Below are positions 5,401 to 54,589 of a stretch of 64,000 nucleotides of DNA, one piece after another; the first letter of the stretch is position 1, and the number at the start of each line of letters is the position of its first letter. The notes below the pieces were generated by a model, which was not told where the DNA came from, made no database searches, and worked only from the letters and a program-made list of their open reading frames with translations. Made by a program: the position numbers and the translations under genes. The stretch covers positions 24,925-88,924 of the IMG/VR virus record IMGVR_UViG_3300034106_006471; one strand, 5' to 3'. The stretch is from a virus.

Positions 5401-8265
5401 AATAGAGATCAAAATTATTGGTTACCTAGCTTAAACGAATGGCATAAAGCAGCATATTACTATCCAGCTAATGAAGAAAACTCCTCCCCTTACTCTGCTA
5501 TTACTATTAGAACAGATACTCCATTTGAGTACAAGCAAGCAGAGCCTTTTGTGTCAGGAACAGGACAAATAGCTTCTGTAACAATTAGTGGTTTACTTTA
5601 TGCTGATTATTTAAAGATTAATCCTCTTGTTATAAAAGATTTAGATAGGAATTATACAACAGCTATTGATCCGACAGAAACGGTTGTTTCTGTAAAAGGC
5701 TTAACATATTTTATTAATCAGACAGGAGAAGATACTGGTAGATTGATCTTAAGGCCAGACAAAACAGTATTTACTCAACCAGTATTAGTAACTACAGGAG
5801 TAGCAAGCACAGTTGATAAATCTGCTGGGATACTAATAGAATCTAGTGGGATTAGTTATGTAGACAGTCAAGGCAAAAAAATTCCTGGAGGCTTATTTCC
5901 AGGGCCAAACGGTGGCTACTTATTTAAGGATCCCAATGGCAGTAATATAATATCTTCCTCTGGCAATTTGATATCTAAATCCGTTAGTGGAGAATATTTA
6001 GCATCTATAACCAGTATTCCTAATAATAGCATTGTTTATCAAGACAATAGATCCGTTTTAGTTGGAAGCTCTTGGTTTAGTGTTGGTAATCCTCCATCTA
6101 ATTTAAAATTCGAAGGAGGAGATAAAGTTGTAACGATATCGTCGTCCTCAACATCAGAATCAACAACAGAACAATCTGAAGAAGATCAAAAACAAAAAGT
6201 ATTATTATATACCGATAATTTAGCCATCGGCCCTGTTTTAGAGTCATATTCTGGCAGCTTATTAACTCATGGAGGTTCTAATATTGCTTATTGGCAACCA
6301 AATGAATTTTTAAGATTACCAGGAGCGATTTGGGAAAAATATCCTAGACGAGCAATAGAGTTTAGTCTAGATCCTGAATCAGATTATACCCAAATTGATT
6401 CTTTTAGATTTGTTGATATAGAACCATCAGATGGAGGAACAGGACCAGTAACTGTTGGTGAACTTAAAAATGAATTTGCTATTAATGAGACTATAGCTAT
6501 ATATAATCAAAAGAGAAATGTAATATATGTTAAAATATCTAATAAAGGATTAGTAGATTCTAGAGGTAGAGTAGTAAATAGTGGATTATTTACTGATGAA
6601 AGTAATTTGGTAATGAATGTTTGTCCACCAATACCAGCAGATTTTGCAAGACAATCTAAATTAGAATTGGCACCAGATAATACAAATGATGGTAGACTAA
6701 TAGCGTATGCTTTTTCTGTTCAAAAGGGTGGTTATTTGGATATGCTCATGGAGCCACAGGCTACTGGAGTTTTTTCTTGCGAAGGACTAATTACATCTCC
6801 CACAACCACATCTGAATACAAATTTAAACCAGGAACATCTAATACTATTAGTTTGCGTCCAGAGATCCACACAGCCTTCAATAAGCTTGCTGAGAATATA
6901 GACTTTGTTGTGTATGGACATAGACCAACTTTATTTACCAGATATGAAAATGACTGGTTTGATAAAGATAAGTCTGGATTGCCCACAGGATTGACTCCAG
7001 CATTTAGAATTAATACAAAAATAAATAACAGCGTAATTGGATCGTTAGAGAGTGGCGTTCTGGTTCAAACCATAGGAGAAACAAGCTCTATAGCAACTGG
7101 TATACTTCCTGATTTTAATCCTAAAATAACAATAAATACTAAAGAACCATATAGAATAGCCACACTAAATAATATTAAACAGGGTATTTTGCTACCTAAT
7201 AGTAATCCAGCCTTAAATTTGGAACTTGAAAAAACGTATGGAACTACAATTCCTATAACCGGTGTTGCAATATCAGGTACGAAAGATTTATCAAATTATG
7301 CTGATTTGACTATCGGAGGAACAACATATACTGATCAATTAATTACAAAAGATGTAGTATTAGGTCCATTATGGAAGGGAGTGATTCCTATACCATATGA
7401 ATTATCATTAACTCAAAAAGTTTATGCTCCTAATTATCCTTTGACAATTAATAATCTTGGTCAAATTGTTTCACTAATACCTCCTCCAGCACCAACAGCG
7501 CCATCTGCTCCCTTAGACTTAGTAGCAAATCCAAAAAATAATTCAGTAATACTAACATGGAATCCCCCTGAGAATGACGGTGGAGAGCCAATTATTGGTT
7601 ATGTGGTTGAATTCTCTATTGACGATGGAAATGTTTGGATAATTGCTGATCAAATAGACGAACAAACATTATTGCCCAATAATCCTGATAAAAATACTAT
7701 AAGAATATTAAATAGTCCAACTGTTACTAACAATATAGGCTATATATTTAGAGTAAGATCTTATAATAGTATTGGTTTTGGTGCATACTCTCAAATTTCT
7801 ACTAGCGTTACCCCATCATCTTCTTTATCCCCAGCTTCTGTTAATAATTTAAGAATCTCTCAGGGAGAAGATTTTGACGGCATAAGAAATTCTACTAATA
7901 TAGTATTGTCTTGGGACCCAGTTGTTTCATTACCAGATGACACAACTCTTCAAAATTATATTGTAGAATATTGGATCTATAATACATTAGATAATAAAGA
8001 TCTAAAATTAGCAACCTGGACAACAGCAGCCAATAGCCCTGTTAGTCCCACAAGCACATCTATATCAATTGGAGGAATAAATACTACATCATTATACTAC
8101 TTTAGCGTATCTACTCTAGCTTCTAATGGTAGTTCTAGCAGTAGATCATTATATGCTAGTTTAGGTAGCGATCCGGATCCAAGACCAATAACTAATCGTC
8201 GAATTAGAAATAATCCTAATAGCTACAACTTCGGATCTATTATATTCACAGGATCATGCTCATAA
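2425..8265 (+). CDS. giant tail fibre/adhesin with permuted FGE-sulfatase-like domain and two C-terminal FN3 domains
   Basis: N-terminus resembles the common phage fibre anchor (FTLLGPLSGY...YELGVG...SSNNNQHVDFS; GADRSLQFNNNGSF). FGE motifs DQNGNVAEW, GGSW, IGFR, EVTNGQY, PVVFV, LPSLNEWHKAAYY at ~4597-5466. FN3 motifs APSAPLDL..VILTWNPPENDGGEPIIGYVVE..YIFRVRSYNSIGFG at ~7495-8160. Confidence 0.75.
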   Translation: MKIFDNVGCEFIYNSNNTFTLLGPLSGYASLSIQDYGFSIPYLARNIDGKNIEYELGVGYLDKVDNKLVLKDKKISVSSNNNQHVDFSKNGNKQFYIFVHNVNFNNAFNNVFICNKDFNIEPRKSVYIVDVSSGYVTASLPDPVLCEAVELEFKTLGDSGVLSLNCEEFKLAIDSNKYTKLVSTGKDWIELKDNNTNNISSLSLSTDDSSFRVLGDPTGADRSLQFNNNGSFDDSSLYQGNNDKLLFGSSTESAAKNIIPSSGDHDLILNQTKDGSNFIVYGTGNAPGYPAKNLYFSYDGRLGINMPSGVNTGSIVKPSTILHVFNTLCREGIRLENRANCYPADITLYDNPFTSPRSNGSSIARIVFAGKDNASNKIDFATIETKIKSASSKLGQLDISVSNGASSKTTISTSSDRTKIESNNALIDVNTSSIRLSGTHISITGTNVGIAALSSVNLTGTAIVSTSLRLPYISSVNSLLSIDSSNRVIAATGFKIPGLSGGSEERLLSVKTDGTVVGQIPKDGVWPYETGQKIGGKDVIWDRYPYRTAQVCLNKITQEIEIENTPLEEFSIGDQIAILNLSNNTTIYRRIRDLTINNDIITRILIDQDVLFTGSTVNLKVYSVSKGGILTNTIYTSETISDATAIVLSSRPQANTVFNTKKKNIDFTVFGSEDKPAFNILANVGSNQNITGAYFKYATHVSGSPPTQSKIDSDGNGSINSSANNSANFADAADPVWSGKVTVVGNNGKPSYYKTFDQNGNVAEWVEDENKQYSYASYQYVCGGSWRTANNNSLRGYIATPRYSGLDDIGFRICSKAGYSHNLENALSIDFVRVDDINNPSDTSPIYEEAWTNRFNDTNDDPLPITKSDLGVVSYPFRISSYEVTNGQYLAFLNSVATGVSSISGLYKSSMTSSPVGGISVSGNGTSIPFTYYVKNNMESMPVVFVDYVSCIRYINWLSNGAPTGNNILPGITEFGAYSIQSGPGGTDQITKNRDQNYWLPSLNEWHKAAYYYPANEENSSPYSAITIRTDTPFEYKQAEPFVSGTGQIASVTISGLLYADYLKINPLVIKDLDRNYTTAIDPTETVVSVKGLTYFINQTGEDTGRLILRPDKTVFTQPVLVTTGVASTVDKSAGILIESSGISYVDSQGKKIPGGLFPGPNGGYLFKDPNGSNIISSSGNLISKSVSGEYLASITSIPNNSIVYQDNRSVLVGSSWFSVGNPPSNLKFEGGDKVVTISSSSTSESTTEQSEEDQKQKVLLYTDNLAIGPVLESYSGSLLTHGGSNIAYWQPNEFLRLPGAIWEKYPRRAIEFSLDPESDYTQIDSFRFVDIEPSDGGTGPVTVGELKNEFAINETIAIYNQKRNVIYVKISNKGLVDSRGRVVNSGLFTDESNLVMNVCPPIPADFARQSKLELAPDNTNDGRLIAYAFSVQKGGYLDMLMEPQATGVFSCEGLITSPTTTSEYKFKPGTSNTISLRPEIHTAFNKLAENIDFVVYGHRPTLFTRYENDWFDKDKSGLPTGLTPAFRINTKINNSVIGSLESGVLVQTIGETSSIATGILPDFNPKITINTKEPYRIATLNNIKQGILLPNSNPALNLELEKTYGTTIPITGVAISGTKDLSNYADLTIGGTTYTDQLITKDVVLGPLWKGVIPIPYELSLTQKVYAPNYPLTINNLGQIVSLIPPPAPTAPSAPLDLVANPKNNSVILTWNPPENDGGEPIIGYVVEFSIDDGNVWIIADQIDEQTLLPNNPDKNTIRILNSPTVTNNIGYIFRVRSYNSIGFGAYSQISTSVTPSSSLSPASVNNLRISQGEDFDGIRNSTNIVLSWDPVVSLPDDTTLQNYIVEYWIYNTLDNKDLKLATWTTAANSPVSPTSTSISIGGINTTSLYYFSVSTLASNGSSSSRSLYASLGSDPDPRPITNRRIRNNPNSYNFGSIIFTGSCS

Positions 8266-8277
8266 AAGGAGAAGTAA

Positions 8278-8829
8278 ATGTCAGCACCTCTTATTCTTAA
8301 ACACTGTTACGAAAATTTAAACGCCCCCAGCCCAGATCAATTAGAGGTTGGCGAACTAGTTATTAATTCTAGAACAGGGAAATTATATACTAGGTTAGCA
8401 TTAGATAATAAAAATCCACCAACCCCAGGACCTATTATAGAATTTATTGGTAAGCAAGTTTGCTATGCAAAAATACCGTCAATTACATTTGATAGCGTAT
8501 CCGATTTTTGTTGCAATGAGGATATTCTTAAAGTTAAGGTTATAGATTTACTTAAAGATACTGAATATAGATTCGAACTTGAAGATATTAGTGGAAATAA
8601 TATTGACTATACTATTAATAGCCCCTTATACACTGATTATACTGTTAGTGATTTAGGAAACTCTTCTGTCGAGTTAAGAGAAGCCGTAATACCTATTACT
8701 TTAAAAATATTGGGATCAAAAAATATTACAATACTTAAATTTAAAATTTTAGGCGGCAGTGTTGATATTAATAGAGAATTAACTAGTAGAACTATAACTA
8801 TTTCTTGCAATAATTGTGATGGACTATAA
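8278..8829 (+). CDS. virion/tail-fibre-associated protein
   Basis: SD-like AAGGAG upstream. N-terminal LILKH..APSPDQLEVGELVINSRTGKLYT matches the 'L..GE.AIN..DGKLY' motif common at phage fibre N-termini. Confidence 0.55.
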   Translation: MSAPLILKHCYENLNAPSPDQLEVGELVINSRTGKLYTRLALDNKNPPTPGPIIEFIGKQVCYAKIPSITFDSVSDFCCNEDILKVKVIDLLKDTEYRFELEDISGNNIDYTINSPLYTDYTVSDLGNSSVELREAVIPITLKILGSKNITILKFKILGGSVDINRELTSRTITISCNNCDGL

Positions 8830-11800
8830 AATGTTTATTCAGGCAAAAAGATATGGAGTATTAGAAGCTGCTTGTGGAATACAAGTATTTTTTGAAAAAA
8901 TAATACCAAGACCTACTAAAATAGCAAATATTATTAATGCTACTAGAGTTAATAGCGTATCAACTATAACTTTGAATAGACTAATAGAGTCTGTAAGTAA
9001 GAATCAGAGAATAACAATAGCACAATCGACTAATGCTCCATCTGACATTATTCCTATACCAGATTCATTTATTGGGGATTTTACCACTACATCTTCTATA
9101 GAGGTAGTAGAGTCTAATAATCTATCATTAACATTTGATCAAAACCTACCTAATACTCAAGGACTATCAGGACAGGTTATGACAGGAGATCTGTACAAGC
9201 AGTCAAACATAGCACCATCTGATCAGTATTTAATACAATTTTTTATAGAAACAAAAACACCTTCTAGCGCTGAAGCCACAGTAAATCCTTCGTCTTATAT
9301 TGTTGGAGGTTATGAGAATTTTATTCCCTCAACGGTTCTTAATGTAGTATCAAGATACAGTAAATCTGTAAAAATTTTATTAAAAATGGTTATCAAAGAC
9401 TATAAAAGTAATACTCTTCTTAGAACGGAATATCAAGAAATTATAGTATCAGATGCTTCTTCCAAACCATGTGAAATTATATACGAAAAACCTATTGATA
9501 CTAATTTTTATGAATTAAATAAAAAAAATAATTGGAGTTATTTTCATGATGGATATTTGTTAGCAGAATTTATTCCAGATAAGTATCATAAAGATATTAT
9601 TATTAAGCTTATTAAAAAAAATAATCGGTTATTACCTAATAGAAGCGACAAAGATAGAATTCGTATTATTGCTGATCCTATAAAACTACAAGATAAACAG
9701 ACTACAATAGATAAAATTAGAAATGCAGTATTAGATATGTATGGTACTATTAGTAATAGTATTGCTATAGCTAATTTAGGAAATAAATCATACGATATTA
9801 TCGTAGAAAATAAATTGGCTAAGCCTGAAGACTTTCAAGATCTTATAGTAGATATTGTGCCCCCAGTAACAGGAACAAACATTAAATTTTCTGAAGTAGC
9901 AACCGCAGAAAACTATACTCAAGATTTAGCTAGTATTCCTAAGATTAGTATATTAAAATGGAATAATTATGGTATTGGAGAATTACATTATAATAGTAGA
10001 ATATATGATAATGATAGTATATTAGTTAATATTTCTGGAGATATTACTGCAAGTTTATCCGGAACTATATCTGATATTACTAATGGAGTTAATTATTTAT
10101 CTACATTATATATTCAACCTACTCCTACTCCATCTAATACTACTACTCCTACTGTTACTCCAACCATAACAGCTACATCGACAACTACTCCAACAATTAC
10201 TCCAACGATCACTCCTACAGAAACAATAACCCCTAGTCCAACAGAAACGATTACTCCTACTCCTACTGAAACGATAACTCCGACTCCAACAGAAACTATA
10301 ACACCAACTCCTACCTCAACAGAATTACCTATTAGTATTAATGTTGTTGTTCATGACGAAAGTAGAGATGGACCGTTATCAAACTCACCTAATTCGCCTA
10401 CTTCTGTTTTTCTTATTAGTGGAAATAGTAGAGTAGTAGGATCTGTTGGTGGAAATAGTGATTATTTTAATTTTCAAATAGATTCAAATCATATATTAAA
10501 TTCTATTTCCTTAGTAAATTATGTATCTCTTGACAGTATTGCTTGGATAGGTATTCAATCAGGACTATCATGGACGGCCGGAGATAATCCTAATTTAATG
10601 TTGGATCAACAACATTTTGGATCAGATGATATTAATAATAATATTTTAACCAACGCTACTCCGTTAAGCTCTGGAGTTTATGTTATAAGAATTCAACAAC
10701 TAGGCTCAGAGGCTTTGTATAATCTTAATTTTGAATTAGTAGCTGCTCCAACTTCTACTCCAACAATCACTCCAACCATTACCTCTACTCCCACGACAAC
10801 ATTAACAGTTACCCCAACTAATACAATTAGTCCAAGTTTAACTCCAACAAATACTATTACATCAACACAAACCCCAACCAACACACCTACTTTAACAACA
10901 ACTCCCACCCCTACTACTAGCTCAATGATTAATGTATTGCCTACTGTTACTCCAACTATTACCCCAACCTCTAGCTTAACAAATACGCCTACGATTACTC
11001 TAACAACCACTCCAACCATAACTCCTAGTGTTAGCTCAATAATTTTTAGAACCAGTAATACTGCTAATTATAATAATTGTGCTAGTTGGGATAATTTAAG
11101 TGGTAATGTAACGTCGGTTGGAACTAATGGAAAAGGATCGTCGTATGGAATTCATGATATGAATGGTAATGTTTGGGAATGGACAGAAAGATTGTGGAAT
11201 GCTGGAGCGCGAGGAGTTAAGGGAGGTAGCTGGAATAGTATAGATAACAGATTATTAAGAACATATGAAGGTATTCAACAGCCAACAACAGTATTAAACC
11301 AGATAGGTTTTAGAGTAGGTTCATTTGTATTAAATAATTTAAATAATTTTATTGTAATTTCAGATAGTGAAAATATTAATGATGATTCTGGAATAGGTAA
11401 TGTTGATTATATATATAGTATTGGTAGATTTTTAGTAACAAATAGCGAATATGCTGAATTTTTAAATAATATAGCAGCACTAGATACTTTTGAAGTATAT
11501 GATATTAATATGAATGGTAATAGAGGAGGCATAATAAGGTCAGGAATTTCGGGATCATACATTTATACAGTCAAAAATAATTATCAAAATAAACCGGTTG
11601 TTTTTGTAAATTGGTATAATGCTGCAAGATATTGCAATTGGTTACACAATAGCAAGCCAACAGGAAATCAAAATAATAGTACTACAGAGAACGGAGCTTA
11701 TCAGTTGACAGGAAATACAAATAGTCCAAATAGAACAATAAATGCTCAATTTTTTATACCAAATGGAAACGAGTGGCAAAAAGCTGCATTCTATAAAGCA

Positions 11801-37771: not shown

Positions 37772-39435
37772 AAGCTGGCCTTTAATTTGGCATATTGAAT
37801 AAAGTCATCATCAAATGAGATATTATTAGCTCTGACATATTCTATTTGATTATGATTATTAATCATGGTATTTAGATTTCTAATTAATTCTGAATCTCCG
37901 AATGCATCAAAAGATGTTCCAGATTGCGTAAATCCATAGCTGGTATCTCTACACATATCTAAAAATGGTAGTGATTTTATCAAATCAATATTATTCATAT
38001 GATTGCCGCAAATATTGATCATTTCATTAATAACATACTTTGGATTGTCTATCTTTTTATCATAGGAGCGCATTAAATTTGGAGCATCATTCCAAGACTT
38101 TTTGGAGGTAAATAGCCAAGGAGAGGAGTCGAAGAAATTTTCCCATTTATCTGCTATTTTATCCCAAGAATAATGTAATTCTGTTAAGTATCTTATTCTT
38201 TTAGATTTGTTTAATTTTTCAATTTCTGGAAGATGGATATGGTTATGAATTATATCTACTAAACTAGTATTGCTTGGATAAACTCTAATAGCTTTAGTCT
38301 CTAATTCTTTAAAGTACGATCCTATTTCAATAGGATATGCTTCTAGTTTATTAATAATATCAACCATAGCACTATAATTAACTGTTGCTACGGGAATTCC
38401 ACAAGCCCCGGCTTCTATTTGCGGTAATCCAAACCCCTCGCATATAGAATACTGAACATATAAATCAAATAAGTTATATATATCTGATAAAGCTTCATTT
38501 GAAACACCAGCAGAAACGCTGATAAATCTACTAGAAAAACCAAAACACTTATTACATATCTTATTAGGACCAGTATAAAAACATGTTGATACATTATCGC
38601 ATTTATTACACTTATATGTAAAGAGCGTCCTATTGCTCATTCTTGTTTCTTTTAGTAGTTCTGGTATGTCCCATCCAGCATCCGGGTAGCTGGTATGCAG
38701 ATATAAATATATCTTATTCGCAAGAGGAGACTCTTCTTCATAAAGTCTATCTATAAGTTGTCTTACAGATGAAAGTAGTTCCGGTATTAACTTGCGCTTT
38801 TGATTACGCATAACAGAACCTATAATTATTGCATCGTTTGGTATATTGTATTTATTCCTTAATTCTTTTTTATTCTTAGGAATAAAAGTATTTAAATCAA
38901 CACCTGGAGAAACAGTATCAATGTAATTAATCTGATTGTCGCTTTGTTTTTTCAGAACATCTGCCGCCCAATCAGAATACGTAAAAATAGCATCAGCACC
39001 TATAAAGGTTTCTATCCACTGTTCTTGCTGAGGGGCCGAGTCTACTGTAGGCATTAAAACCCAATTAAAAAATGGTCTAACAGCAGAAAAACCTTGATAG
39101 TAACTCATCCAATAATCTCTTATATCGCAATTAACGTGGGGCTTAAAATCTATTATAACTTTATCGAATCTCCAACGACCAAATTGATTATCAGTCCTCG
39201 ACATATACTCTTGATATCGAGGATCATCTGCTCTAACAGCATTGGGGTAGTATTTCCATTTGATTTCGGAATCTCTTGGATCATTTACAAAACCATAACA
39301 CGCTAGTTCTGCTATGTCATATTTGTTTAATGAATGTAGTCTAGTAAGTAGTTCTCTGGTATAATTTCCAAAACCAGAATTTATAAAACTAGCTTCTGAA
39401 GTAAATAAGATTTTGAGTTTAGTTGATTGCGACAT
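37768..39435 (-). CDS. GT4 family glycosyltransferase with zinc-ribbon insertion
   Basis: KILFTSEASFINSGFGNYTRELL; IGSVMRNQKRK; YNLFDLYVQYSICEGFGLPQIEAGACGIPV (intact ExxxxxxxE); CNKC..CNKC insert. Start set at MSQST because the longer ORF begins inside a terminator hairpin. Confidence 0.9.
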   Translation of the reverse strand: MSQSTKLKILFTSEASFINSGFGNYTRELLTRLHSLNKYDIAELACYGFVNDPRDSEIKWKYYPNAVRADDPRYQEYMSRTDNQFGRWRFDKVIIDFKPHVNCDIRDYWMSYYQGFSAVRPFFNWVLMPTVDSAPQQEQWIETFIGADAIFTYSDWAADVLKKQSDNQINYIDTVSPGVDLNTFIPKNKKELRNKYNIPNDAIIIGSVMRNQKRKLIPELLSSVRQLIDRLYEEESPLANKIYLYLHTSYPDAGWDIPELLKETRMSNRTLFTYKCNKCDNVSTCFYTGPNKICNKCFGFSSRFISVSAGVSNEALSDIYNLFDLYVQYSICEGFGLPQIEAGACGIPVATVNYSAMVDIINKLEAYPIEIGSYFKELETKAIRVYPSNTSLVDIIHNHIHLPEIEKLNKSKRIRYLTELHYSWDKIADKWENFFDSSPWLFTSKKSWNDAPNLMRSYDKKIDNPKYVINEMINICGNHMNNIDLIKSLPFLDMCRDTSYGFTQSGTSFDAFGDSELIRNLNTMINNHNQIEYVRANNISFDDDFIQYAKLKASL

Positions 39436-39439
39436 ATTT

Positions 39440-39468
39440 AAAAAAAATGGGGGGTATTTCACCCCCAT
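39440..39468 (-). terminator. rho-independent terminator after ssb
   Basis: Minus strand ATGGGGGT-GAAAT-ACCCCCCAT followed by a T-run: GC stem, short loop, U-tract. Confidence 0.8.
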
Positions 39469-39500
39469 CTATTTAGGCCCTTATGACAGATTAAGCCGGA

Positions 39501-39875
39501 TCAGAAAGCAACAGTCTCTGTACTTTCGGTTTTATTGGTCTTGGAGAGCTTAGTAATCTTAGAAAAATTATTAACTCTTACCTTTAAACTACTATGCTTA
39601 ACACCATCTTTTTCCCAGCTATCGTTCCTTAGAGATCCTTCTATCATTACTAAATCACCCTTTTTAAAAGAAGAACCAATAACCTCAGCACCTGTATCCC
39701 AAGCTTCGCAATTAATAAAAGAAGTAATCTTATCTTTTTCTCCGTTAGCCTTTGTATACTCCCTTGACGTAGCAACAGTAAAGTTTACTACCGAAGTTTG
39801 CTTGCCATTACTATTAATGACTCTAACTTCTGGATCACGAGCAAGATTACCCTTAATCAATGTAATATTCATCAT
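39501..39875 (-). CDS. ssb: single-stranded DNA-binding protein
   Basis: MNITLIKGNLARDPEVR...VVNFTVATSR...FINCEAW...KKGDLVMIEGSLRNDSWEKDG; SD AAGGAG before ATG at 39875. Confidence 0.95.
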   Translation of the reverse strand: MMNITLIKGNLARDPEVRVINSNGKQTSVVNFTVATSREYTKANGEKDKITSFINCEAWDTGAEVIGSSFKKGDLVMIEGSLRNDSWEKDGVKHSSLKVRVNNFSKITKLSKTNKTESTETVAF

Positions 39876-39916
39876 ACAAATCTCCTTAAGTTCAAATTTA
39901 ATATCCAACCACCGAC

Positions 39917-39946
39917 TTATAATAGTTTGAGGAGGCCAAGAGTCAA
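39917..39946 (-). promoter_or_regulatory. sigma70-like promoter for ssb
   Basis: TTGACT-N16-TATTATAA on the minus strand; the -35 overlaps the stop codon of the dnaE C-fragment. Confidence 0.6.
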
Positions 39947-41067
39947 GATAAGGGAACAAAACACTTTTCCACTATAAAACCATCCTTGGACTTTGCTCTA
40001 CTTCCAGAAAAAACCAGAATATTTTCTTCAAATAAATGATGTTTATATTTTTGATAGGTTTCAGGAAATAATATAACCGAATCTAAACTACCTGTCTGAT
40101 CCTCTACTGTCAAAAAAGCCATCTCTTGACCAGGAGTTTTTCCGGTTTTAGTTTTGATAGCATTAATATAAGTTATTTCGCCAGCAAGTAAGATTTTTTG
40201 ATTAATATTAGAATGTTTAAAATCTCTACATGTACTATTGGTCATACTAATATCATAAGAGTCTAATTTAGAACAAGATATAGCAGTTCCCAGGTACGCC
40301 GCTTCGTTATCTGCTAACCATTCCACCTTATCTATTAAAGAATACGGTGGACTAATATATGTCTGTAAAAGATCTTGTATAATAAGTTTTCTATTTTTAT
40401 TTACTTTTGTATGATTAATTAATAAATTTAAACAATCCTTGAGCGTAGTTTTATTACTAATTAATATTGGTTTTAAATAATCAATTTCTTTGGTGGTTAA
40501 AGAGGATGATATTTCAAAATCAAATAATATTTCTGTTCTATTTTTGCCAAAATAGTCTATAGCTCCGCAACTAATAATTGCTTTAGATGAAGAAGAATTT
40601 ATTTTATGTAAAACCCCAAATAGCATTTGTAAATAATTCATTTTTGAAATACTATTATTAGTGTTTAATTCTAATAATTTATTATAAACACTTACTCCTA
40701 AGCCCTTAATATCTGTTAATCCAAAATATATTTTATTATTTTTGATTTCAAAAAGCTTATTCATTAATCTTAAATCAGGTAAACATATACTAATATCCAT
40801 CTCATTAGCATTTTTTACCAATTGTTTTATTTCTTGCTGAGGATCGACTTTGTCTTTAGCAAATCTAAGATAAGAGCAAAAAAAGGCTTGAGGAAAATGG
40901 GCTTTAGTATATGCAGATAAGTAGGCATTCATAGCATAGCTAACGCCATGAGAGTTAGAGGTGGCTATTCCATTACCAAAGAATAAATGCTGATTAGACT
41001 TAACTTCAATATCTACTGTTGGTTTTATTCCAACTTTCTCGATTTTTGTAATTTTTCTCGCTATCAC
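39943..41067 (-). CDS. dnaE: DNA polymerase III alpha, C-terminal fragment preceded by split-intein C-part
   Basis: GTG start; 38-aa IntC ending ...HLFFGNGIATSN, then extein SHGVSYAMNAYLSAYTKAHFP; IYFGLTDIKGLG (HhH); OB fold EMAFLTVEDQTGSLDSVILFPETY. Confidence 0.92.
   Translation of the reverse strand: MIARKITKIEKVGIKPTVDIEVKSNQHLFFGNGIATSNSHGVSYAMNAYLSAYTKAHFPQAFFCSYLRFAKDKVDPQQEIKQLVKNANEMDISICLPDLRLMNKLFEIKNNKIYFGLTDIKGLGVSVYNKLLELNTNNSISKMNYLQMLFGVLHKINSSSSKAIISCGAIDYFGKNRTEILFDFEISSSLTTKEIDYLKPILISNKTTLKDCLNLLINHTKVNKNRKLIIQDLLQTYISPPYSLIDKVEWLADNEAAYLGTAISCSKLDSYDISMTNSTCRDFKHSNINQKILLAGEITYINAIKTKTGKTPGQEMAFLTVEDQTGSLDSVILFPETYQKYKHHLFEENILVFSGSRAKSKDGFIVEKCFVPLS
40954..41067 (-). 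other. split intein C-fragment (IntC)
   Basis: MIARKITKIEKVGIKPTVDIEVKSNQHLFFGNGIATSN|S: block F (VDIEV..HLFF.NG) and terminal Asn followed by Ser+1. Confidence 0.9.
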
Positions 41068-41960
41068 TGTTTTTTCCTTAAATAATTTTTTCTAGCTTGA
41101 ATTGTTGCTAGGTTTCTGTTTGGAAGCATGGGTACTAGATTTTTTGTTTGTCTTTCATTAATATGTTTCAATATAATAGCATCTTCTTTTTCGGTCCAAA
41201 ACTTATAATCTGAACTGATTTCTAAAAATTTATCATATTTTCTTTGTAGTTTAAAGGTGGCATCTTTATATATAACATCAAACAACTTGATGCAGTCTGT
41301 TTGACAGAACTTAAGTTCATAGTATTTTTTCTTTATTTTTTTAACATTGCCAAATCCTAAATAGTTATGAATATCATCTAAAATCTGTTTGGATACAGAC
41401 ACTATATTGGCATAGTAATAGTCTTTGCCTCTACGATGAAAATTCGTTTTCCATATCGACCCATCTCCATCAAAAAATCCACGAATAAAATGACTTATGT
41501 ATTTCTTGGGCATCTTTGGTAATTTTAGATTAAATGTTTTATTATGATCTATACCTAATTTAATTAATTTTTTGTGTATTTTTTTGGAAAATATACATAT
41601 TTGGCATTTATCTTTTGATACTCTGATTTTAGATTCTGTAGATATTTTATCTCTAATGTACTCTAGCATGGCTATGTCTTTTATGTGTATTCCAATAGTA
41701 ATATATGGTCTTTTTTCCCAAACATGGCCGTCTGATGCGATAAAACCTAGACAATAAGCTAGATCTATGGACCACTTAGTAAAAAATTTATCATTGGCAA
41801 AATATTTTATTTGAGCCCCACTGGATTTTTTAGGAATTCCATACTTTTCTATATAATTAAGAACAGTCGTTCTTCCAATATTTTTTATTTTGGATATTTG
41901 TATAGATCCAAGATTTTGAATAACATATAAATTATATAGTTCATTCTTATCAATTAACAT
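41064..41960 (-). mobile_element. free-standing LAGLIDADG homing endonuclease between the split-intein halves
   Basis: Two motifs LAYCLGFIASDGHV and HFIRGFFDGDGSI; N-terminal HTH-like and C-terminal WTEKED..PNRN..TIQAR (Myb-like) segments; stop overlaps the IntC start (GTGA). Confidence 0.88.
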
Positions 41961-41996
41961 AAATTACACTGTAAATAGTTTAATAAATATCATAAT

Positions 41997-42293
41997 CTAT
42001 GCTATACACATAATTTCTAAATTGTTAAGCAAAATTTCTGATAATGGATGAACTTTATTATCGGAACATAAAAATTTATGCTCCATAGTACAGGTTATAT
42101 GATTTCCATTATCTAATGTTATTTTAAAGACTTCTTGTTTACCATGATCATATTTCTTAATAACTTCAATATATTTATTTTCATATGTATTGTCATTACT
42201 TATTACTGGAGAAAGTATCTTTTCTCCTATGTCTAGATCTTTTATTGTTTTTTCTCCTGATTCAGTCAGCACCACAGTTTCTTCTAGTATCGA
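41997..42293 (-). other. split intein N-fragment (IntN, ~98 aa)
   Basis: K|SILEETVVLTESGEKTIKDLDIGEKILS (block A starting with Ser) ... GKQEVFKITLDNGNHITCTMEHKF (block B TxxH). Confidence 0.9.
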
Positions 42294-42890
42294 CTTATTA
42301 AAACTGTACCTTTGACTTTTTTCGATCCATCCGAATATTTCCTGGGCATCATTATCATTAACAATATTTTGTTTTTTACATCCCTCTAAAAATTTACCTT
42401 TAATTTCCGCCATAAGCTTAACATCTTTTTTTCCAATGCTTTTTCTTAAAGTATCGCTTTCTGATAATGTGAAACCAGCAATATCTTTTGCTATTTGTAT
42501 AGCTTGTTCTTGGTAAATTAATTCGCCAAGAGTTCCACTCAGGATAGGCTCTAAAGATGGATGAAAATAATCTATACTTTCATTATGATTTTTTCTATCT
42601 ATATAGTGATTTGTAACGCTTTTACCGTCTCTAATAGCTTCTAATGATCCTGGCCTTAAAATAGAAATCAAAGCAGACAACTGCTCCATATTTTCTGGTT
42701 TAAGTTTTTTGGCAATACTTTGACCCAAACGACTTTCTAGCTGAAATACTCCCTTAGTATTTCCATCTGAAATTAGATTCCATGTTTTTTTACAATTTAA
42801 ATTAATATTCTCTATTTTAGGAGAAAATATAATTCTATTGTCTTCAACACAAGAAAAAGAACAACCACAATCAAACTGTAATTTAGTCAT
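41997..42890 (-). CDS. dnaE: DNA polymerase III alpha, middle (finger) fragment ending in split-intein N-part
   Basis: GNTKGVFQLES..LKPENMEQLSALISILRPG, TLGELIYQEQ, AGFTLSESDTLRKSIGKK, RYSFNK, then IntN. Confidence 0.92.
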   Translation of the reverse strand: MTKLQFDCGCSFSCVEDNRIIFSPKIENINLNCKKTWNLISDGNTKGVFQLESRLGQSIAKKLKPENMEQLSALISILRPGSLEAIRDGKSVTNHYIDRKNHNESIDYFHPSLEPILSGTLGELIYQEQAIQIAKDIAGFTLSESDTLRKSIGKKDVKLMAEIKGKFLEGCKKQNIVNDNDAQEIFGWIEKSQRYSFNKSILEETVVLTESGEKTIKDLDIGEKILSPVISNDNTYENKYIEVIKKYDHGKQEVFKITLDNGNHITCTMEHKFLCSDNKVHPLSEILLNNLEIMCIA

Positions 42891-43585
42891 TATGAGTTAA
42901 CAAAAGATCCTTTAAATTTAATTTTTTGACTTAAATTTCTGTGCAATCTTAAAAATCTAACAGCTATTTCTGCTGTGTCTTTTACATCTTTTAAAGCATC
43001 ATGAGAACCGTCTTTATTAATGCCTAAATAATCTCTTAAATTATCTAGAGTATAGTTTTTAAGTTCATTGTTTCCCTCAAACCAATAAAAGATAACATTC
43101 ATTATATCTAATATGTCTCTAGGATAGAATAATGATGATGACCCTTCTTTATTTAAGTTGCCATATTTTTTACTTAACCTATTGACTATCTTCATATCAA
43201 AGCGATTAATATTATATCCAGATGCTATTGGAGCACTAAAAAAACTCTTTTTGGTATTTCTGGTATGATACATATCTAAGTAGGATACAAATCTTTCCCA
43301 CCCATTTTTTTGATCTGGATAATTTTTCCAAGAAGAAAGAATATCTTCTTTAGAACATCCTCTAACTTTTGAATGAAAATCTAAAACATCACTGTCCCCA
43401 TAAGCATAGCTTTCATTATCTATTAATTTTTCTGGTTTTAAATTAATATTAAATTCTGAATCTGGTATAACTTCTAATTTTAGAGGGTCTACCATAATAG
43501 CAGCAATTTGAACGGGACTGCATGATTCTGGATCGGACCCGTCTGTTTCCATATCAAAAACACAAATTTTTTGTAGATTAGGCAT
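42890..43585 (-). CDS. DEDDh 3'-5' exonuclease (DnaQ/epsilon-like)
   Basis: VFDMETDG (ExoI), SGYNINRFD (ExoII), HDALKD (ExoIII). Confidence 0.88.
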   Translation of the reverse strand: MPNLQKICVFDMETDGSDPESCSPVQIAAIMVDPLKLEVIPDSEFNINLKPEKLIDNESYAYGDSDVLDFHSKVRGCSKEDILSSWKNYPDQKNGWERFVSYLDMYHTRNTKKSFFSAPIASGYNINRFDMKIVNRLSKKYGNLNKEGSSSLFYPRDILDIMNVIFYWFEGNNELKNYTLDNLRDYLGINKDGSHDALKDVKDTAEIAVRFLRLHRNLSQKIKFKGSFVNS

Positions 43586-43757
43586 TTATTCCTACTTCCG
43601 ATGATGGTTGAACGTAAATGGTATTATTACTATCATTAGCCGAGCAGGCATTTACTGTTTTGCAACAACTTACTCTAACGTCGTTGATTTTAATAAACTC
43701 TTGACCATTCAATGTGAATCTATCTCCTACCGCTAGTTCTGAAAATACTTTATTCAT
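43578..43757 (-). CDS. small hypothetical protein (59 aa, not in ORF track)
   Basis: MNKVFSELAVGDRFTLNGQEFIKINDVRVSCCKTVNACSANDSNNTIYVQPSSEVGINA; ATGA overlap with the dnaE-N stop, GGAG SD upstream, fills the gap exactly. Confidence 0.7.
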   Translation of the reverse strand: MNKVFSELAVGDRFTLNGQEFIKINDVRVSCCKTVNACSANDSNNTIYVQPSSEVGINA

Positions 43758-45634
43758 AATTCTACTCCTTGATTATATAGTATATCTGAAATATGCATAG
43801 CTTTATCTAGAAATGCTAATCCTAGTATATCAAATTTAATAACTCCCAAAGCTTCTAAGTCATTCATTTCCATGCCTGCGATCATTTGTTGATTTTTATT
43901 ATCATATATCATAGGACAAATATCTTCTAGATTATCTCTAGATATTACTACACCAGCAGCATGTTTTGATTGATTAGACTTGGTGCCTTCTAATCTTATA
44001 GCTTGTTCGAATCTTTTTGCAAGCGGACCTTCTAGTGTCTCATCTTCTTTTAAAGAACACCACTCTTTTAGCTTATCTGAACTATTTTCTAGAGCCCATC
44101 TAATAATACTAGATTCGCCTGTTTCTTCTTTCATTTCTTGAAGCTCGTCTGCAATTTTAGCTTCGTCAGGTATATTTTTGGTTATTTTATTCATCTCTTC
44201 AAAACTAATATTGCCATACACTCTTAAAACTTCTTTTAAAGCCCCTCTTCCTTTCATTGTATTAAAAGTTAACATTTGTGCTACTTTTTTAGTTCCATAT
44301 TTATTTTTGATATAATCAATAACATAATCTCTTTTATTAATAGGAACGTCTATATCTATATCTGGTAGAGATACTCTGTCTTTGGAGGATCTACCAATAT
44401 TGTAAAATCTTTCAAAAATTAGATGATAAGGAATAGGATTTACTCCAGTTATTCCTATAAGATATGAAACTAAACAACCGGCCGCACTTCCTCGACCAAC
44501 TCCAGCCAACCAATTATTTTTCTTTACATAATCAACAATATCCTGAACTATTAAAAAATAACTACTTAAACCAGCACCCTGAAGAACTTCTAGTTCATGT
44601 TTTATTCTATCTACATAAATATTTTCATCTTCTTTAGATACTTTATTTTGAATTTTATCTCTCCAGCCATTTCTACATAATTGTCTTAGATATTGATCAG
44701 GATCATATCCTTCCGGACAATCAAAAGTTGGAAGAACTGGTCTGCTAGTAATATCATAATTTTCGCATAAGCTATCTACAAAATTGGTATTTTCTAATTC
44801 TTCTTCTGTATGAATATCTAGCATTTCTTGAAAAGAAGGAATATGATACTTATCTGATTTAAAAAAGCATCCCATGGGTGCTGATTCGTCATTTAATATT
44901 TTTCTATTAACTTCTGGTAATGTTAATTTTAAATTATTACATATTAATACTCTTTGATCAACAGCATCTTCGCTTTCACAATAATGAGCATCTGGGGTTG
45001 CTATTAATTTTGTTTGTGTTTTTTGACCTATAGTTCTAATTAAGTTTGTTAAAGCAATTTGATCAGCATTGTGTTCTTGGTCTATTAATTGAGATTCTAA
45101 AAAGAAATTATCATTTCCAAACATACCTTTCATTTTACTAACAAATTCGCAGCCTAAATGAATAGGACTATCAGCTTTATGTAGTAGATTAGACAGTGAT
45201 GAACCTAAATGGCCACAGAAACCAATAATATTACCATCTAAAAGAGTTGATAAAGTATCAAAATCCAATCTTGGCTTATGATAGAACCTATCAGGATTAT
45301 TGCTAGCAGATATTATTTTTATTAAAGTTTTCCATCCATTATAGTTTTTAGCAAGTAGTAAAAAATGAGACAGTTGACTATTTTCTTTAGTTTTTAGTGT
45401 TGAGTTTTGATCACATACATATATTTCACAGCCTAATATTGGTTTAATTCCTGCTTTTTTCATATGAGAATAAAATTGCACAGCACCGCTAATAGAGCCG
45501 TGATCAGTTAGAGCACAAGAAGTTGCTCCTATTTTTGCACATCTAGCAGCTATTTGTGCTGGCTTACTTAAGCCATCTAGCAACGAGAAGTGGGAGTGTA
45601 CATGTAGGGGCGTGTATTTGCCTCCTGTTGTCAT
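43754..45634 (-). CDS. dnaE: DNA polymerase III alpha, N-terminal fragment (PHP + palm/thumb)
   Basis: LHVHSHFSLLDG, ALTDHG, KPILGCE, DAHY (PHP); GVGRGSAAGCLVSYLIGIT, PDIDID, SKHAAGVVI, KFDILGL. Stops about 20 aa after KFD. Confidence 0.95.
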   Translation of the reverse strand: MTTGGKYTPLHVHSHFSLLDGLSKPAQIAARCAKIGATSCALTDHGSISGAVQFYSHMKKAGIKPILGCEIYVCDQNSTLKTKENSQLSHFLLLAKNYNGWKTLIKIISASNNPDRFYHKPRLDFDTLSTLLDGNIIGFCGHLGSSLSNLLHKADSPIHLGCEFVSKMKGMFGNDNFFLESQLIDQEHNADQIALTNLIRTIGQKTQTKLIATPDAHYCESEDAVDQRVLICNNLKLTLPEVNRKILNDESAPMGCFFKSDKYHIPSFQEMLDIHTEEELENTNFVDSLCENYDITSRPVLPTFDCPEGYDPDQYLRQLCRNGWRDKIQNKVSKEDENIYVDRIKHELEVLQGAGLSSYFLIVQDIVDYVKKNNWLAGVGRGSAAGCLVSYLIGITGVNPIPYHLIFERFYNIGRSSKDRVSLPDIDIDVPINKRDYVIDYIKNKYGTKKVAQMLTFNTMKGRGALKEVLRVYGNISFEEMNKITKNIPDEAKIADELQEMKEETGESSIIRWALENSSDKLKEWCSLKEDETLEGPLAKRFEQAIRLEGTKSNQSKHAAGVVISRDNLEDICPMIYDNKNQQMIAGMEMNDLEALGVIKFDILGLAFLDKAMHISDILYNQGVEL

Positions 45635-45645
45635 TTTTTAAACCT

Positions 45646-46689
45646 TTAGTGTGTTGAGCCAGGTGATTTATAAAACCCGACAGAGTGATTTGGTGCGCTA
45701 TAGTTTTGTACCACATGATCCATACCATGCAACTCTATTTCGTGACGAATTTGTTCACATTTTGTCATATGTTTACCAAATGGAGTAATTTGATTATCTC
45801 TATATTCAATAATTGGGTCTATATTTGTATTTTCAAAAGTAGTTTTACCAAAATGACACAATTTGGTACACATCCAACATTTATTTAGTTTAGGCTTTTT
45901 AACATTTTTTATAAGCTCAAATTTTTGTCGTAACATATCCTCCGTGCTTGCTAAATCTTTTTTATCAAAACAAATAGAAAATGGGCCACCGTCATTTACA
46001 AAATATATAGAAAAAATAATATGTTCTATTTCAGGATATAATTTACTAATAGCATAATGATAAATTTTTAATTGAGGATCTTTTTCTAATTTTTCTATTG
46101 TTTTTTCTTCTCCAGTAGCCCAGTCCAATCTTCTTCCAGTTTTCCAGTCTATGATTTCAATAGTTTTATTATTTGCCAGTGTGATTAAGTCTATTGTTCC
46201 TTTTAAGGCCAAATTACCAGATATTTCTCCAGACGGAGTTTTGAAGTTGTATTGGGCCCACTTCTTATCTATTGTAAAATCAAAATGCTGCTCAGGAGAA
46301 ATTATTTGTCTGTTTCTCGGATCAAACATACCATTATTAAATTCTATAGCTTTATAGACCCAACTATGACAATCTTTGTAGTCTTTATTAGTCCAATTAT
46401 GGTGACTATTAGCTGTTGAGTAGTAGTCGTATACTTTTTTAATAATAGAATCTAAACTATATGATGAACAACTAATTTTACCTACTACATCATCTTGGAT
46501 AAAATCTATATTGTCCTGTTGAGCTTTTTTGATTACTGCAAGTATTTCTAAAATTTTATGAACAGTTGTCCCTTTGTCTGCTTTAAGGCCGCTTGGACCT
46601 CTCCAGCCTAAAACATACTCGATAAAATATTGCTGTTCACAAAGAGAATGAGTATTGTACGAAGAGCTTCTGAAATATGTAGTAATTAT
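45646..46689 (-). CDS. Cas4/AddB-like PD-(D/E)XK exonuclease, probable ATA start
   Basis: Frame is open 120 codons upstream of the tracked Met (46329), giving IITTYFRSSSYNTHSLCEQQYFIEYVLG..ADKGTTVHKILE; LKGTIDLI, EIIDWKTG, QLKIYHYA; C-terminal CWMCTKLCHF. Confidence 0.8.
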   Translation of the reverse strand: MITTYFRSSSYNTHSLCEQQYFIEYVLGWRGPSGLKADKGTTVHKILEILAVIKKAQQDNIDFIQDDVVGKISCSSYSLDSIIKKVYDYYSTANSHHNWTNKDYKDCHSWVYKAIEFNNGMFDPRNRQIISPEQHFDFTIDKKWAQYNFKTPSGEISGNLALKGTIDLITLANNKTIEIIDWKTGRRLDWATGEEKTIEKLEKDPQLKIYHYAISKLYPEIEHIIFSIYFVNDGGPFSICFDKKDLASTEDMLRQKFELIKNVKKPKLNKCWMCTKLCHFGKTTFENTNIDPIIEYRDNQITPFGKHMTKCEQIRHEIELHGMDHVVQNYSAPNHSVGFYKSPGSTH

Positions 46690-53652: not shown

Positions 53653-53990
53653 TTAATTTTTTTTCCTTTTGACATTCTAGTCATTCCTTTTGGCAGCGGT
53701 TTATCCACCTTATTTTCTTTATAATCATTATGTTTTTGATACATATAATTTTTTTCATCCTCACTCATTTTATCTCTATTACGATTTGCTAAATCTCCAA
53801 TAGTTTTAAGTTCATTATCTGATTTTTTAACAGACGCTGCTTGGCTAAGGATATCTCTAGTATATAACCTATAAGTTTCTTTTGAACTGAGACAATATTC
53901 GCATTTTGGTTGAGATTTATAGTCTTTAATATAAAAAAATAATTCGAAATCTTTATTACATTTATCGCAATAATATGAATATGTAGGCAT
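53643..53990 (-). CDS. FmdB-family zinc-ribbon protein
   Basis: MPTYSYYCDKCNKDFELF......PKCEYC; TAATG overlap with the HNH stop defines the start. Confidence 0.8.
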   Translation of the reverse strand: MPTYSYYCDKCNKDFELFFYIKDYKSQPKCEYCLSSKETYRLYTRDILSQAASVKKSDNELKTIGDLANRNRDKMSEDEKNYMYQKHNDYKENKVDKPLPKGMTRMSKGKKIKWT

Positions 53991-54589
53991 TATATTAAGT
54001 AAGAATCTGGTAGGTATGAAATCCATTCATCCGGTATACTATCTCTTATTTTATACAGAAGGTGGGTTACTGGCAAGTATTTAATATTTTTATTTGGCTC
54101 AATTGGGAAACTATGTAAATTCATATTGGCCTGTTTTGGTGTTTTATTTCCTTTCTTTCTATTACATCCTATACATGCTGTTACTATATTTGTCCAAGAG
54201 GTAGGTGAACCTTTATTGTAGTCCCATTTTGATTTTGGTATAACATGATCATATGTTAATTCATTATTATTAAATCTTTTATTGCAGTATTGACACGTAA
54301 AATTATCTCGTAAAAAAATATTTTTCCTAGAAAATAAAACGTGTTGTTTATTGATCTTAAAAAATCTTTTAGTTTTTGCTATTGCTGGAACAGGGTGTTT
54401 TTTATTTATTCCTATGATAAAATCATTCTTATAAAAATCGATAATCTCTATGCCATATTTTGGATTATCTTCATACTTAAAACTCCAAACCAGAGCTTTT
54501 TTCCATGTAATAATAGATAATGGAGTATAATCACAATTTAATAATAAACAAAGCTTATGATTGTCCGCTAGCATCTTCATAAGATTCAA
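53990..54589 (-). CDS. HNH endonuclease (McrA-like)
   Basis: LLLNCDYTPL; FSRKNIFLRDNFTCQYC; LTYDHVIPKS; WTNIVTACIGCNRKKGNKTP. Start uncertain. Confidence 0.9.
   Translation of the reverse strand: MNLMKMLADNHKLCLLLNCDYTPLSIITWKKALVWSFKYEDNPKYGIEIIDFYKNDFIIGINKKHPVPAIAKTKRFFKINKQHVLFSRKNIFLRDNFTCQYCNKRFNNNELTYDHVIPKSKWDYNKGSPTSWTNIVTACIGCNRKKGNKTPKQANMNLHSFPIEPNKNIKYLPVTHLLYKIRDSIPDEWISYLPDSYLI

Follow-up and report, generated by a model that had tools for sequence, protein, structure and literature searches.

Introduction

C-family replicative DNA polymerases are textbook single chains. Polymerase genes fractured by split inteins, and replicative polymerases made from two separate genes, are the closest described systems to the one analysed here, a dnaE gene, coding for the alpha subunit of DNA polymerase III (Pol III), that is interrupted twice. 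It lies on a 64,000-nucleotide stretch of viral DNA, in the following called the window (positions 24,925 to 88,924 of IMG/VR virus record IMGVR_UViG_3300034106_006471, which measures 88.9 kb and is 62% complete according to CheckV). DNA related to the window is found in lake-water metagenomes. Break 1, between the palm and fingers domains, holds genes for a 59-residue protein (s59) and a DEDDh exonuclease; break 2, downstream of the fingers, carries a split intein with a homing endonuclease gene.

For break 2, Dassa et al. (2009) described “fractured genes”, the metagenomic DnaE-1 to DnaE-3 among them, in which a free-standing homing endonuclease gene stands between the halves of a split intein (PMC2677866). 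Break 2 shares this layout, the host protein and the origin from phage-like aquatic DNA. The endonucleases differ, those of Dassa et al. being GIY-YIG and Vsr-like, whereas the LAGLIDADG type encoded in the window has no mention in the main text of that paper. The window intein moreover has Ser1/Ser+1 nucleophiles, and one related locus (L041) has at the same site an endonuclease that, by eye, looks like the Vsr-like type of Dassa et al. With respect to the main text of that study, the LAGLIDADG gene and the serine chemistry are variations on the fractured-gene theme. The cyanobacterial split DnaE (Ssp, Npu) is likewise a DnaE matured by protein trans-splicing, with its intein by the FNKSH motif, but its halves are encoded at distant loci, it has no endonuclease, and its nucleophiles are Cys1/Cys+1 (PMC2677866).

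Replicative polymerases made from two genes without an intein are also known. They include the split gp43 of T4-like phages (cited in PMC2677866) and DNAP-N and DNAP-C of PhiKZ, which form a stable 1:1 complex by cryo-EM (PMC13648687). As described in these sources, both belong to family B, are split elsewhere than break 1 and have no proofreader gene inside. Iyer et al. (2021) reported a minimal split Pol III in group 2.2 jumbo phages as two stand-alone proteins (PMC7824862); it differs in being a minimal catalytic module that lacks PHP and the remaining domains, encoded by genes that lie far apart and beside a family B polymerase. In the literature searched, in which the polymerase surveys Timinskas 2014 and 2026 NAR were covered by keyword only and subscription journals were outside scope, no description was met of a full DnaE split between palm and fingers with an exonuclease gene inside.

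The E. coli Pol III core (alpha, epsilon and theta) resembles the present locus in pairing a C-family polymerase with a DEDDh proofreader, and the order N–s59–exonuclease–C resembles a core-enzyme operon that includes a small accessory subunit. PolC carries its DEDDh domain within the PHP domain and E. coli dnaQ is a distant gene, whereas here alpha consists of two chains and the nuclease, a protein of its own, has its gene within that of the polymerase. Theta is helical, in contrast to the predicted all-beta, SH3-like barrel of s59. The window contributes a gene that has both breaks at once and, together with its relatives, a comparative series that parts core from subclade features and takes in unsplit relatives with an upstream exonuclease gene as well as a same-site break in a cultivated phage. 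As judged from these relatives, the arrangement is not peculiar to the window phage, break 1 being clade-wide and break 2 an element of known kind.

Results and discussion

A complete alpha subunit encoded in three pieces

The initial annotation, made from the sequence alone, had placed DnaE motifs in collinear order over three open reading frames (ORFs). Pfam, PHROG 405 and alignments to Taq and E. coli alpha bear out both the order and the coordinates. Pfam agrees with the initial annotation on all parts and further identifies a 298-aa ORF as a LAGLIDADG endonuclease. The parts of the gene are the following.

43754–45634, minus strand: dnaE-N, 626 amino acids (aa); PHP, palm and thumb with the catalytic motifs PDIDID and KFDILGL, ending ...YNQGVEL and stop (Pfam, PHROG 405, Taq/E. 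coli alpha alignment)
43578–43757, minus strand: s59, 59-aa protein, SH3-like small beta-barrel (homologues, alignment A1, AlphaFold2)
42890–43585, minus strand: DEDDh 3'-5' exonuclease, 231 aa, presumed proofreader (Pfam RNase_T, phrog_192)
41997–42890, minus strand: middle piece, 297 aa; leader, fingers and N-intein
42813–42890, minus strand: leader of the middle piece, aa 1–26, MTKLQFDCGCSF..., without counterpart in Taq or E. coli alpha
42294–42812, minus strand: fingers extein, aa 27–199, GVFQLES ... RYSFNK (Pfam DNA_pol3_finger; E. coli alpha 587–758)
42000–42293, minus strand, stop at 41997–41999: N-intein (IntN), 98 aa, Ser1 (SILEET...), block B TMEH (HINT-family matches, intein-free alleles, alignment with L008, L041, P0013 and P0021)
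41064–41960, minus strand: free-standing two-motif LAGLIDADG homing endonuclease (HEN), 298 aa, LGFIASDGHV and FFDGDGSI (Pfam, PHROG, PDB)
39943–41067, minus strand: C piece, 374 aa; C-intein, HhH and OB
40954–41067, minus strand: C-intein (IntC), 38 aa, GTG start, ...DIEVKSNQHLFFGNGIATSN (alignment with relative L008)
39943–40953, minus strand: C extein, Ser+1 (SHGVSYA...), HhH and OB domains (Pfam HHH_6 and OB; PHROG 405)

In Pfam, dnaE-N matches PHP (E 2.5e-34) and DNA_pol3_alpha (1.1e-73, profile positions 1–260 of 260), the middle piece DNA_pol3_finger (2.6e-44) and the C piece HHH_6 and OB. Along the 1190 positions of PHROG 405 the N, middle and C pieces cover 43–606, 622–794 and 793–1072, respectively. 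The N piece, which also includes the first helix after KFDxLGL, aligns to Taq alpha 6–642 and E. coli alpha 5–562; the middle piece picks up at Taq 647 / E. coli 587, and its extein ends at E. coli K758/S759. As the profile and structure alignments are collinear and near gap-free, the enzyme is complete with no part missing. Beyond intact DnaE, the locus has a leader of 26 residues, both halves of the intein and three genes placed in the gaps. PHP, palm (the Pol-beta-like nucleotidyltransferase domain with the catalytic Asp), fingers, HhH and OB thus make up the DnaE / Pol III alpha set; what is lost is the single polypeptide, since the chain stops and restarts at 43754/42890 and at 41997/41067. 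Judged by these motifs and alignments, the split polymerase descends from DnaE and would work like it.

No second, intact dnaE is present in the 88.9-kb source record, and the fragments are under purifying selection (see below). We consider it roughly 78% probable that the sole detectable DNA polymerase of this phage is a C-family DnaE made up from three translation products, as a result of gene fission and the later invasion of a split intein, and that the last two products are trans-spliced into a chain which associates non-covalently with the first.

Break 1

The gap between dnaE-N and the middle piece holds s59 and the exonuclease. The genes are coupled by overlaps that can be read directly in the sequence: ATGA between dnaE-N and s59, an 8-nt overlap (ATGCCTAA) between s59 and the exonuclease, and TAATG between the exonuclease and the middle piece. 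Not a single non-coding base remains between the dnaE-N stop and the middle-piece ATG. The initial description of break 1 as an interval without intein signature that contains a 59-aa ORF and a DEDDh exonuclease, all coupled by overlaps, is confirmed by sequence inspection and Pfam. It had also taken KFDxLGL and VFQLES to be joined by a short linker in intact DnaE; the two motifs are indeed linked, but by about 45 residues, and break 1 lies just past the first helix of this linker.

Neither dnaE-N nor residues 1–199 of the middle piece gave a HINT match in Pfam, and the leader has just 26 residues. Rfam returned no match at E ≤ 1 over 39000–46500, and no group I or group II intron was recognisable at break 1. 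Given no HINT domain, no Rfam match and no non-coding base, an intein or intron at break 1 is rejected. The related explanation, a healing of break 1 in the RNA by an intron or another splicing or bypass event that removes s59 and the exonuclease so that one chain is translated, draws on phages Jayan, vB_BceM_WH1 and KLEB27-3. In these the dnaE gene is broken elsewhere, the fragments end in short non-homologous tails after conserved motifs, and the interruptions look like intron or endonuclease insertions. In the window, by contrast, homology of dnaE-N to Taq alpha extends to the very end of the fragment, the leader shows conservation at the protein level, and the interval codes, in other frames, for two proteins on which purifying selection acts. 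RNA-level healing is accordingly regarded as very improbable. Of the three objections raised at the outset (misassembly, a second intact dnaE in the record, RNA splicing), none holds against these data.

Assembly artefacts are a still more remote explanation, with next to no probability attached to them at either junction and no evidence found in their favour. Four other runs yielded contigs that cross the junctions: the X3 contig at 42314–44708, from an independent lake-metagenome assembly, covers the whole of break 1 with 0 differences, and contigs of X4, X5 and X7 likewise span the break-1 junctions. A further X3 contig (40035–41570) covers the HEN/C junction without differences, and the same layouts recur in many independent metagenomes. 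Five single-contig “skips”, with sides of 21–56 nt at 90% likeness, match neither break and are taken as contigs of relatives.

The exonuclease shows the motifs Exo I DMETDG (D-x-E), Exo II NRFD and Exo III HDALKD (H-x4-D) that define the DEDDh class. It matches Pfam RNase_T (E 4e-12, 47.4 bits vs a cut-off of 24) and phrog_192, “DNA polymerase exonuclease subunit”; its PDB matches are weak and include 2p1j, a PolC-type exonuclease domain. For s59, 82 distinct homologues were collected, and F14, C31, C32 and V55 are invariant in 57 aligned sequences (alignment A1). AlphaFold2 predicts a small beta-barrel (pLDDT 93.8) that resembles SH3, KOW, Tudor and EF-P domain I folds only generically (Foldseek best E 0.057; VIA best Z 5.1), and no specific function could be derived from the fold by either method. 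The family corresponds to phrog_2183, where it has no assigned function. At L049:9865–10533, and also in L050 and L051, the s59 homologue reaches 222 aa owing to a long and strongly acidic tail. The leader is predicted as a short beta element in relative L003 (pLDDT about 85–87). Residues F12 and C33 are invariant in alignment A2, likewise C8 and C10; because A2 was chosen for the CxC motif, conservation of the latter is best taken from the locus counts given below (127–128 of 130).

Differences at non-synonymous sites (pN) are far less frequent than at synonymous sites (pS) in s59, exonuclease, leader, IntN, HEN and exteins, e.g. pN 0.12–0.31 vs pS 0.53–0.72 for s59 and about 0.15 vs about 0.67 for the exonuclease. 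As dS is saturated, these ratios are rough, and the inequality is used in place of dN/dS.

Break 1 among relatives

A scan of viral contigs with dnaE-N yielded 59 loci at 45–74% identity. The N frame ends at the corresponding position in 58 of these; in the 59th, L046, it continues past the contig end. Another 77 loci came from a second scan. Of the total of 136, in which 8 contigs were fetched twice, 6 are incomplete and 130 informative. All 130 are split at break 1 and all 130 carry the exonuclease in the gap. The synteny that the initial annotation had proposed to look for is thus found, with tight coupling, in all informative loci of the group to which the window belongs: at the three junctions an overlap or a spacing of ≤25 nt was found in 118, 119 and 115 of 123 measured loci (94 distinct sequences). 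A hidden Markov model (HMM) detects s59 in 127/130 loci. The CxC leader is present in 127/130, or 128 if L081 with its later ATG is included, a count that rests on an automated start call.

A third set of 25 loci, obtained with the unsplit queries P0077 and P0013, comprises 1 incomplete, 2 unsplit and 22 split loci (22/24 informative). The exonuclease lies in the gap of all 22 split loci, which brings it to 152/152 split loci overall. Neither s59 (by HMM) nor the leader (by the printed starts) was found in these 22, and their gaps hold the exonuclease alone, the exonuclease with a 76-aa ORF, or the exonuclease with extra genes. The 76-aa ORF was considered as a relative of s59 and rejected (hhalign probability 0.7%). 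Since 22 split loci lack both s59 and leader, the core architecture is N / exonuclease / C, with s59 and leader as subclade-specific features. A strict pairing of the latter two is doubtful as well, as there are exceptions both ways: L110 has s59 and no leader, L052 and L055 have the leader and no s59, and L054 also departs from the pattern.

A protein search against 1.84 billion cluster representatives (50% identity) gave 28,103 matches at E ≤ 0.001. Among the best 150 of these, all of at least 39% identity and classified by alignment, 142 end 17–40 residues past the KxDxLG strand, as in the window; six extend into the fingers, and the other two are a fusion to a cpYpsA domain and a truncated protein. 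On this basis break 1 appears to be the normal state in a very large clade of aquatic phages, and it is, by its distribution, an old family-wide trait and no accident.

These data also bear on the notion that the fragments are decaying or working separately while a host or other phage polymerase replicates the genome. The incompleteness of the record leaves room for this, and no clamp or clamp loader was detected among the ten larger neighbouring ORFs scanned. Still, all catalytic and structural motifs are intact, pN remains far lower than pS in all parts, >150 loci share the layout, and the genes lie inside a complete replication module with RNR, RecA, DnaB, primase and SSB. Such decay is therefore judged highly unlikely, if marginally less so than RNA-level healing.

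Various relatives carry further insertions. In the fused cluster representative, P0134 (762 aa), a circularly permuted YpsA (SLOG) domain follows the C-terminus of dnaE-N instead of a stop. Insertions of 1.0–3.6 kb part the exonuclease from the C fragment in 5/123 measured loci (L037, L038, L041, L116 and L127). At L054:9899–11548 the interval from N to exonuclease also holds three other ORFs, one of which (293 aa) is C5 DNA methyltransferase-like by eye; the locus has neither s59 nor the CGC leader, and its C-fragment ORF measures about 890–907 aa owing to an in-frame insertion. At L057:9140–10219, and also in L059, an insertion of ~1.08 kb sits inside N near residues 337–382 with a change of frame, and L022:11028–11725 has an in-frame insertion of ~250 aa in the fingers near residue 97. 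Inteins occur in the N part of several cluster representatives, e.g. P0009 with a LAGLIDADG intein. From these cases, dnaE in the relatives is a hot spot of mobile elements. Two loci filed as bacterial metagenome-assembled genomes (MAGs), L142 (GTDB MAG contig RFTN01000003.1, 141 kb) and L141, carry a dnaE-N that is 64–66% identical; the 141-kb contig probably represents a phage genome that was assigned to a bacterial bin.

Unsplit relatives and cultivated phages

Four cluster representatives (P0004, P0011, P0036 and P0077) are contiguous PHP–palm–fingers–HhH chains by Pfam, P0004 with an in-frame intein in addition, and two (P0013 and P0021) are contiguous across the palm/fingers junction and end in an N-intein. 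The two unsplit loci L148 and L149 share the coordinates 6315–9685. In both, the exonuclease gene is found directly upstream, at 6315–6980, with the dnaE match starting at 7001, and FNR/C is the insertion site of a Cys1 split intein. Their order, exonuclease before the contiguous N–C, reads as though exonuclease and N had traded places relative to the usual N, exonuclease, C. Used as a query, P0036 led to split relatives only. P0011 gave no related loci in viral contigs and just an unrelated 31% match in metagenome contigs, and P0021 gave none.

In a FastTree phylogeny of 146 rows (143 representatives, the window and the phages phiT1 and PK-1, with 7 representatives <540 aa dropped) split forms enclose the six unsplit ones, which make up two small groups. 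IQ-TREE on 50 chosen rows requires 3 state changes, as does the FastTree phylogeny. However, a single clade of the six unsplit rows, a group named post hoc from the tree, is not rejected by the approximately unbiased (AU) test (p 0.078), so that the number of re-fusions is put at “one or two” only. By this phylogeny the unsplit forms are a small minority inside the split clade; with PK-1 as root, the tree is most simply explained by one or two secondary re-fusions accompanied by relocation of the exonuclease gene. How an essential gene splits and fuses again should be traceable here, as the relatives include split and unsplit genes, exonuclease genes inside and upstream, and forms with and without intein.

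Among 50,697 phage records no relatives above about 35% identity were found, and the 60 best full-length matches to an unsplit query in these records are all single-piece. The dnaE of Rossellomorea phage phiT1 (PV767480, L139:3986–7268) is broken at the same residue as in break 1. Its gp20 ends ...KFDLLGL...INQGVAV and stop, a 49-aa ORF follows, and gp18 starts ~20 residues before GVFQLES. Of gp20, gp19 and gp18, two coding sequences are annotated “DNA polymerase III subunit alpha”. The likeness thus comprises the fission residue and a small gap ORF; phiT1 differs by the absence of gap exonuclease and CGC leader, by a small ORF that is unlike s59 by eye, and by a protein identity of only ~34%. 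The literature search found no paper discussing the phiT1 dnaE split. The phage would offer a tractable cultivated system for non-covalent assembly.

Break 2

At break 2, residue 200 of the middle piece and residue 39 of the C piece correspond to one Ser codon of a single ~535-aa ORF in 48/50 informative loci; only L008 and L041 are split at this site. Because the intein-free alleles join middle-piece residues 1–199 directly to C residues 39–374, the limits of the intein are set at S200–A297 and M1–N38, and the proposal that break 2 is a split intein gains firm comparative support from excision exactly to the intein-free allele. The intein residues Ser1, TMEH (TxxH), C-terminal Asn (...TSN) and Ser+1 are present. 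Insertion is at FNK/SH, and exact in-frame excision restores the FNKSH of the host protein; the Ssp/Npu DnaE intein site lies, we assume, three residues upstream (..AEY/CFNKSH).

The middle piece stop and the HEN start codon ATG are 36 nt apart, and HEN and C piece overlap by GTGA. HEN matches LAGLIDADG_3 of Pfam (E 4.5e-09, 36.9 bits vs a cut-off of 22.5), with two motifs including their acidic residues in one chain, as well as phrog_4645 (endonuclease) and PDB 2dch, a putative homing endonuclease (E 4e-05). The layout of a fractured gene, intein halves on adjacent ORFs with a free-standing endonuclease gene between them, is found in the window and also in L008 and L041. L008 has the same intein and LAGLIDADG gene in the same place, with identities of 71% for IntN, 68% for HEN and 82% for IntC (33 aligned codons). 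In L041 a Cys1 intein at the break-2 site encloses a different endonuclease ORF, whose motif VDGDYWH...RFWESDI looks Vsr-like. Cys1 N-inteins also sit at the same position in P0013, P0021 and L148/149, all unsplit at break 1, so that all four combinations of break 1 and break 2 exist. Taken together, break 2 is, by comparison of these alleles, a sporadic mobile element of known kind. The middle piece and the LAGLIDADG ORF (window 41960–42890) share one frame, parted by a stop and 12 codons, whereas in L008 they lie in different frames; the shared frame may be a coincidence or a vestige of an intein–endonuclease that was formerly continuous.

An alternative is that the intein halves no longer splice and serve as an association module in a three-chain, non-covalent enzyme. 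The Ser1 and Ser+1 in place of Cys would fit, and the split is old enough for window and L008 to have drifted apart to 59–82% amino acid identity across the parts. There is, moreover, a precedent in phage Aeh1 NrdA, where fragments assemble via element-derived interaction domains, as far as described in PMC3045599. On the other hand, Ser1, TxxH, Asn and Ser+1 are all kept in both window and L008, and the insertion interrupts an invariant motif (F197 N198 S200 H201), so that FNKSH would stay disrupted without splicing. We consider a non-splicing intein unlikely, and splicing the better explanation. This natural split intein is cysteine-free (Ser1/Ser+1), Cys1 alleles exist for the position it occupies, and inteins of this type are of practical interest for protein ligation.

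Proposed assembly of the enzyme

From the anatomy, conservation, selection and excision boundaries described above we infer the following sequence of events. Break 1 would be an inherited gene fission after the catalytic KFDxLGL strand and the next helix. The catalytic aspartates reside on the PHP–palm chain and the dNTP/template-binding fingers, HhH and OB on the second chain, and hence non-covalent association is needed. At break 2, a mobile Ser1/Ser+1 split intein with its LAGLIDADG gene would have entered the second chain later and sporadically. The intein halves are proposed to associate and trans-splice, which would restore FNKSH and yield a ~535-aa chain as in intein-free relatives. The spliced chain would then bind the PHP–palm chain. 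In the single-chain Taq and E. coli enzymes the helix after KFDxLGL packs in the fingers, and the C-terminal helix of dnaE-N probably packs into the fingers here as well. The nuclease would join as in the Pol III core. As exonuclease and s59 are translationally coupled to both halves, the “core” polymerase parts are expected to be made together, from one operon ending after ssb. Its products would be the PHP–palm chain, s59, the proofreader, fingers–IntN, the endonuclease, IntC–HhH–OB and SSB. The scheme put forward initially, a non-covalent N fragment plus a trans-spliced middle/C chain with a proofreader from inside the gene, is in keeping with the comparative data. In this scheme Pol III alpha would occur in nature in two pieces (three in the present phage), the gene of its proofreader lying in the break. 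This raises the questions of how the palm/fingers interface tolerates a chain break and whether co-translation sets the subunit stoichiometry.

Several points weigh against this assignment. With the record 62% complete, another polymerase elsewhere in the genome is possible. The HINT matches of the middle piece stay below their cut-offs (Intein_splicing 1e-07, 32.3 bits vs 35.8; Hint 24.4 vs 29.7), as expected of a half intein, and Ser1 inteins are rarer than Cys1 inteins. Finally, phiT1 shows the same fission without exonuclease in the gap and without leader, so that the fission can be explained without the nuclease.

The initial annotation had further suggested that the CGC leader might mediate assembly. 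Its conservation within the window's group stands, but a general need for it does not, as the 22 split loci of the sister group, phiT1 and L110 are all without leader. Whether CxC...C of the leader and CC of s59 form a shared metal or disulfide clasp that docks the proofreader and locks both halves is a speculative idea, to which we give little weight, though slightly more than to the non-splicing intein. If true, the polymerase would be active only with the nuclease on board, a built-in fidelity checkpoint arising from gene fission.

Neighbouring genes and further observations

The polymerase block is flanked by the following features.

45646–46329, minus strand: PD-(D/E)XK nuclease gene
39501–39959, minus strand: ssb, final gene of the block (Pfam SSB, E 8e-25)
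39445–39470, minus strand: terminator-like hairpin after ssb; 9-pair stem, 5 G-C pairs, T run

Related loci long enough to reach it have ssb at the same place. The hairpin 3' of ssb is the sole strong terminator-like site on the minus strand there and likely marks the end of the transcription unit. Genes for primase, DnaB, RecA, PhoH and RNR lie upstream of the polymerase block.

Within the first ~220 aa of dnaE-N the PHP metal-binding motifs appear intact by eye (HVHSH, LLDG, TDHG, CEIY, SHF and TPDAHY), and a PHP nuclease may therefore exist besides the DEDDh one. Past the HhH domain, at about 40380–40420, an R-x-x-M-L-F-E-Y stretch is conserved (...GKNRTEILFDFE...), with R338 invariant and M341 and L342 nearly invariant in alignment A2; we take this to be the place of the internal clamp-binding motif of E. 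coli alpha. A free-standing HNH endonuclease gene is located at 53990–54589, between the PhoH gene and the RecA region.

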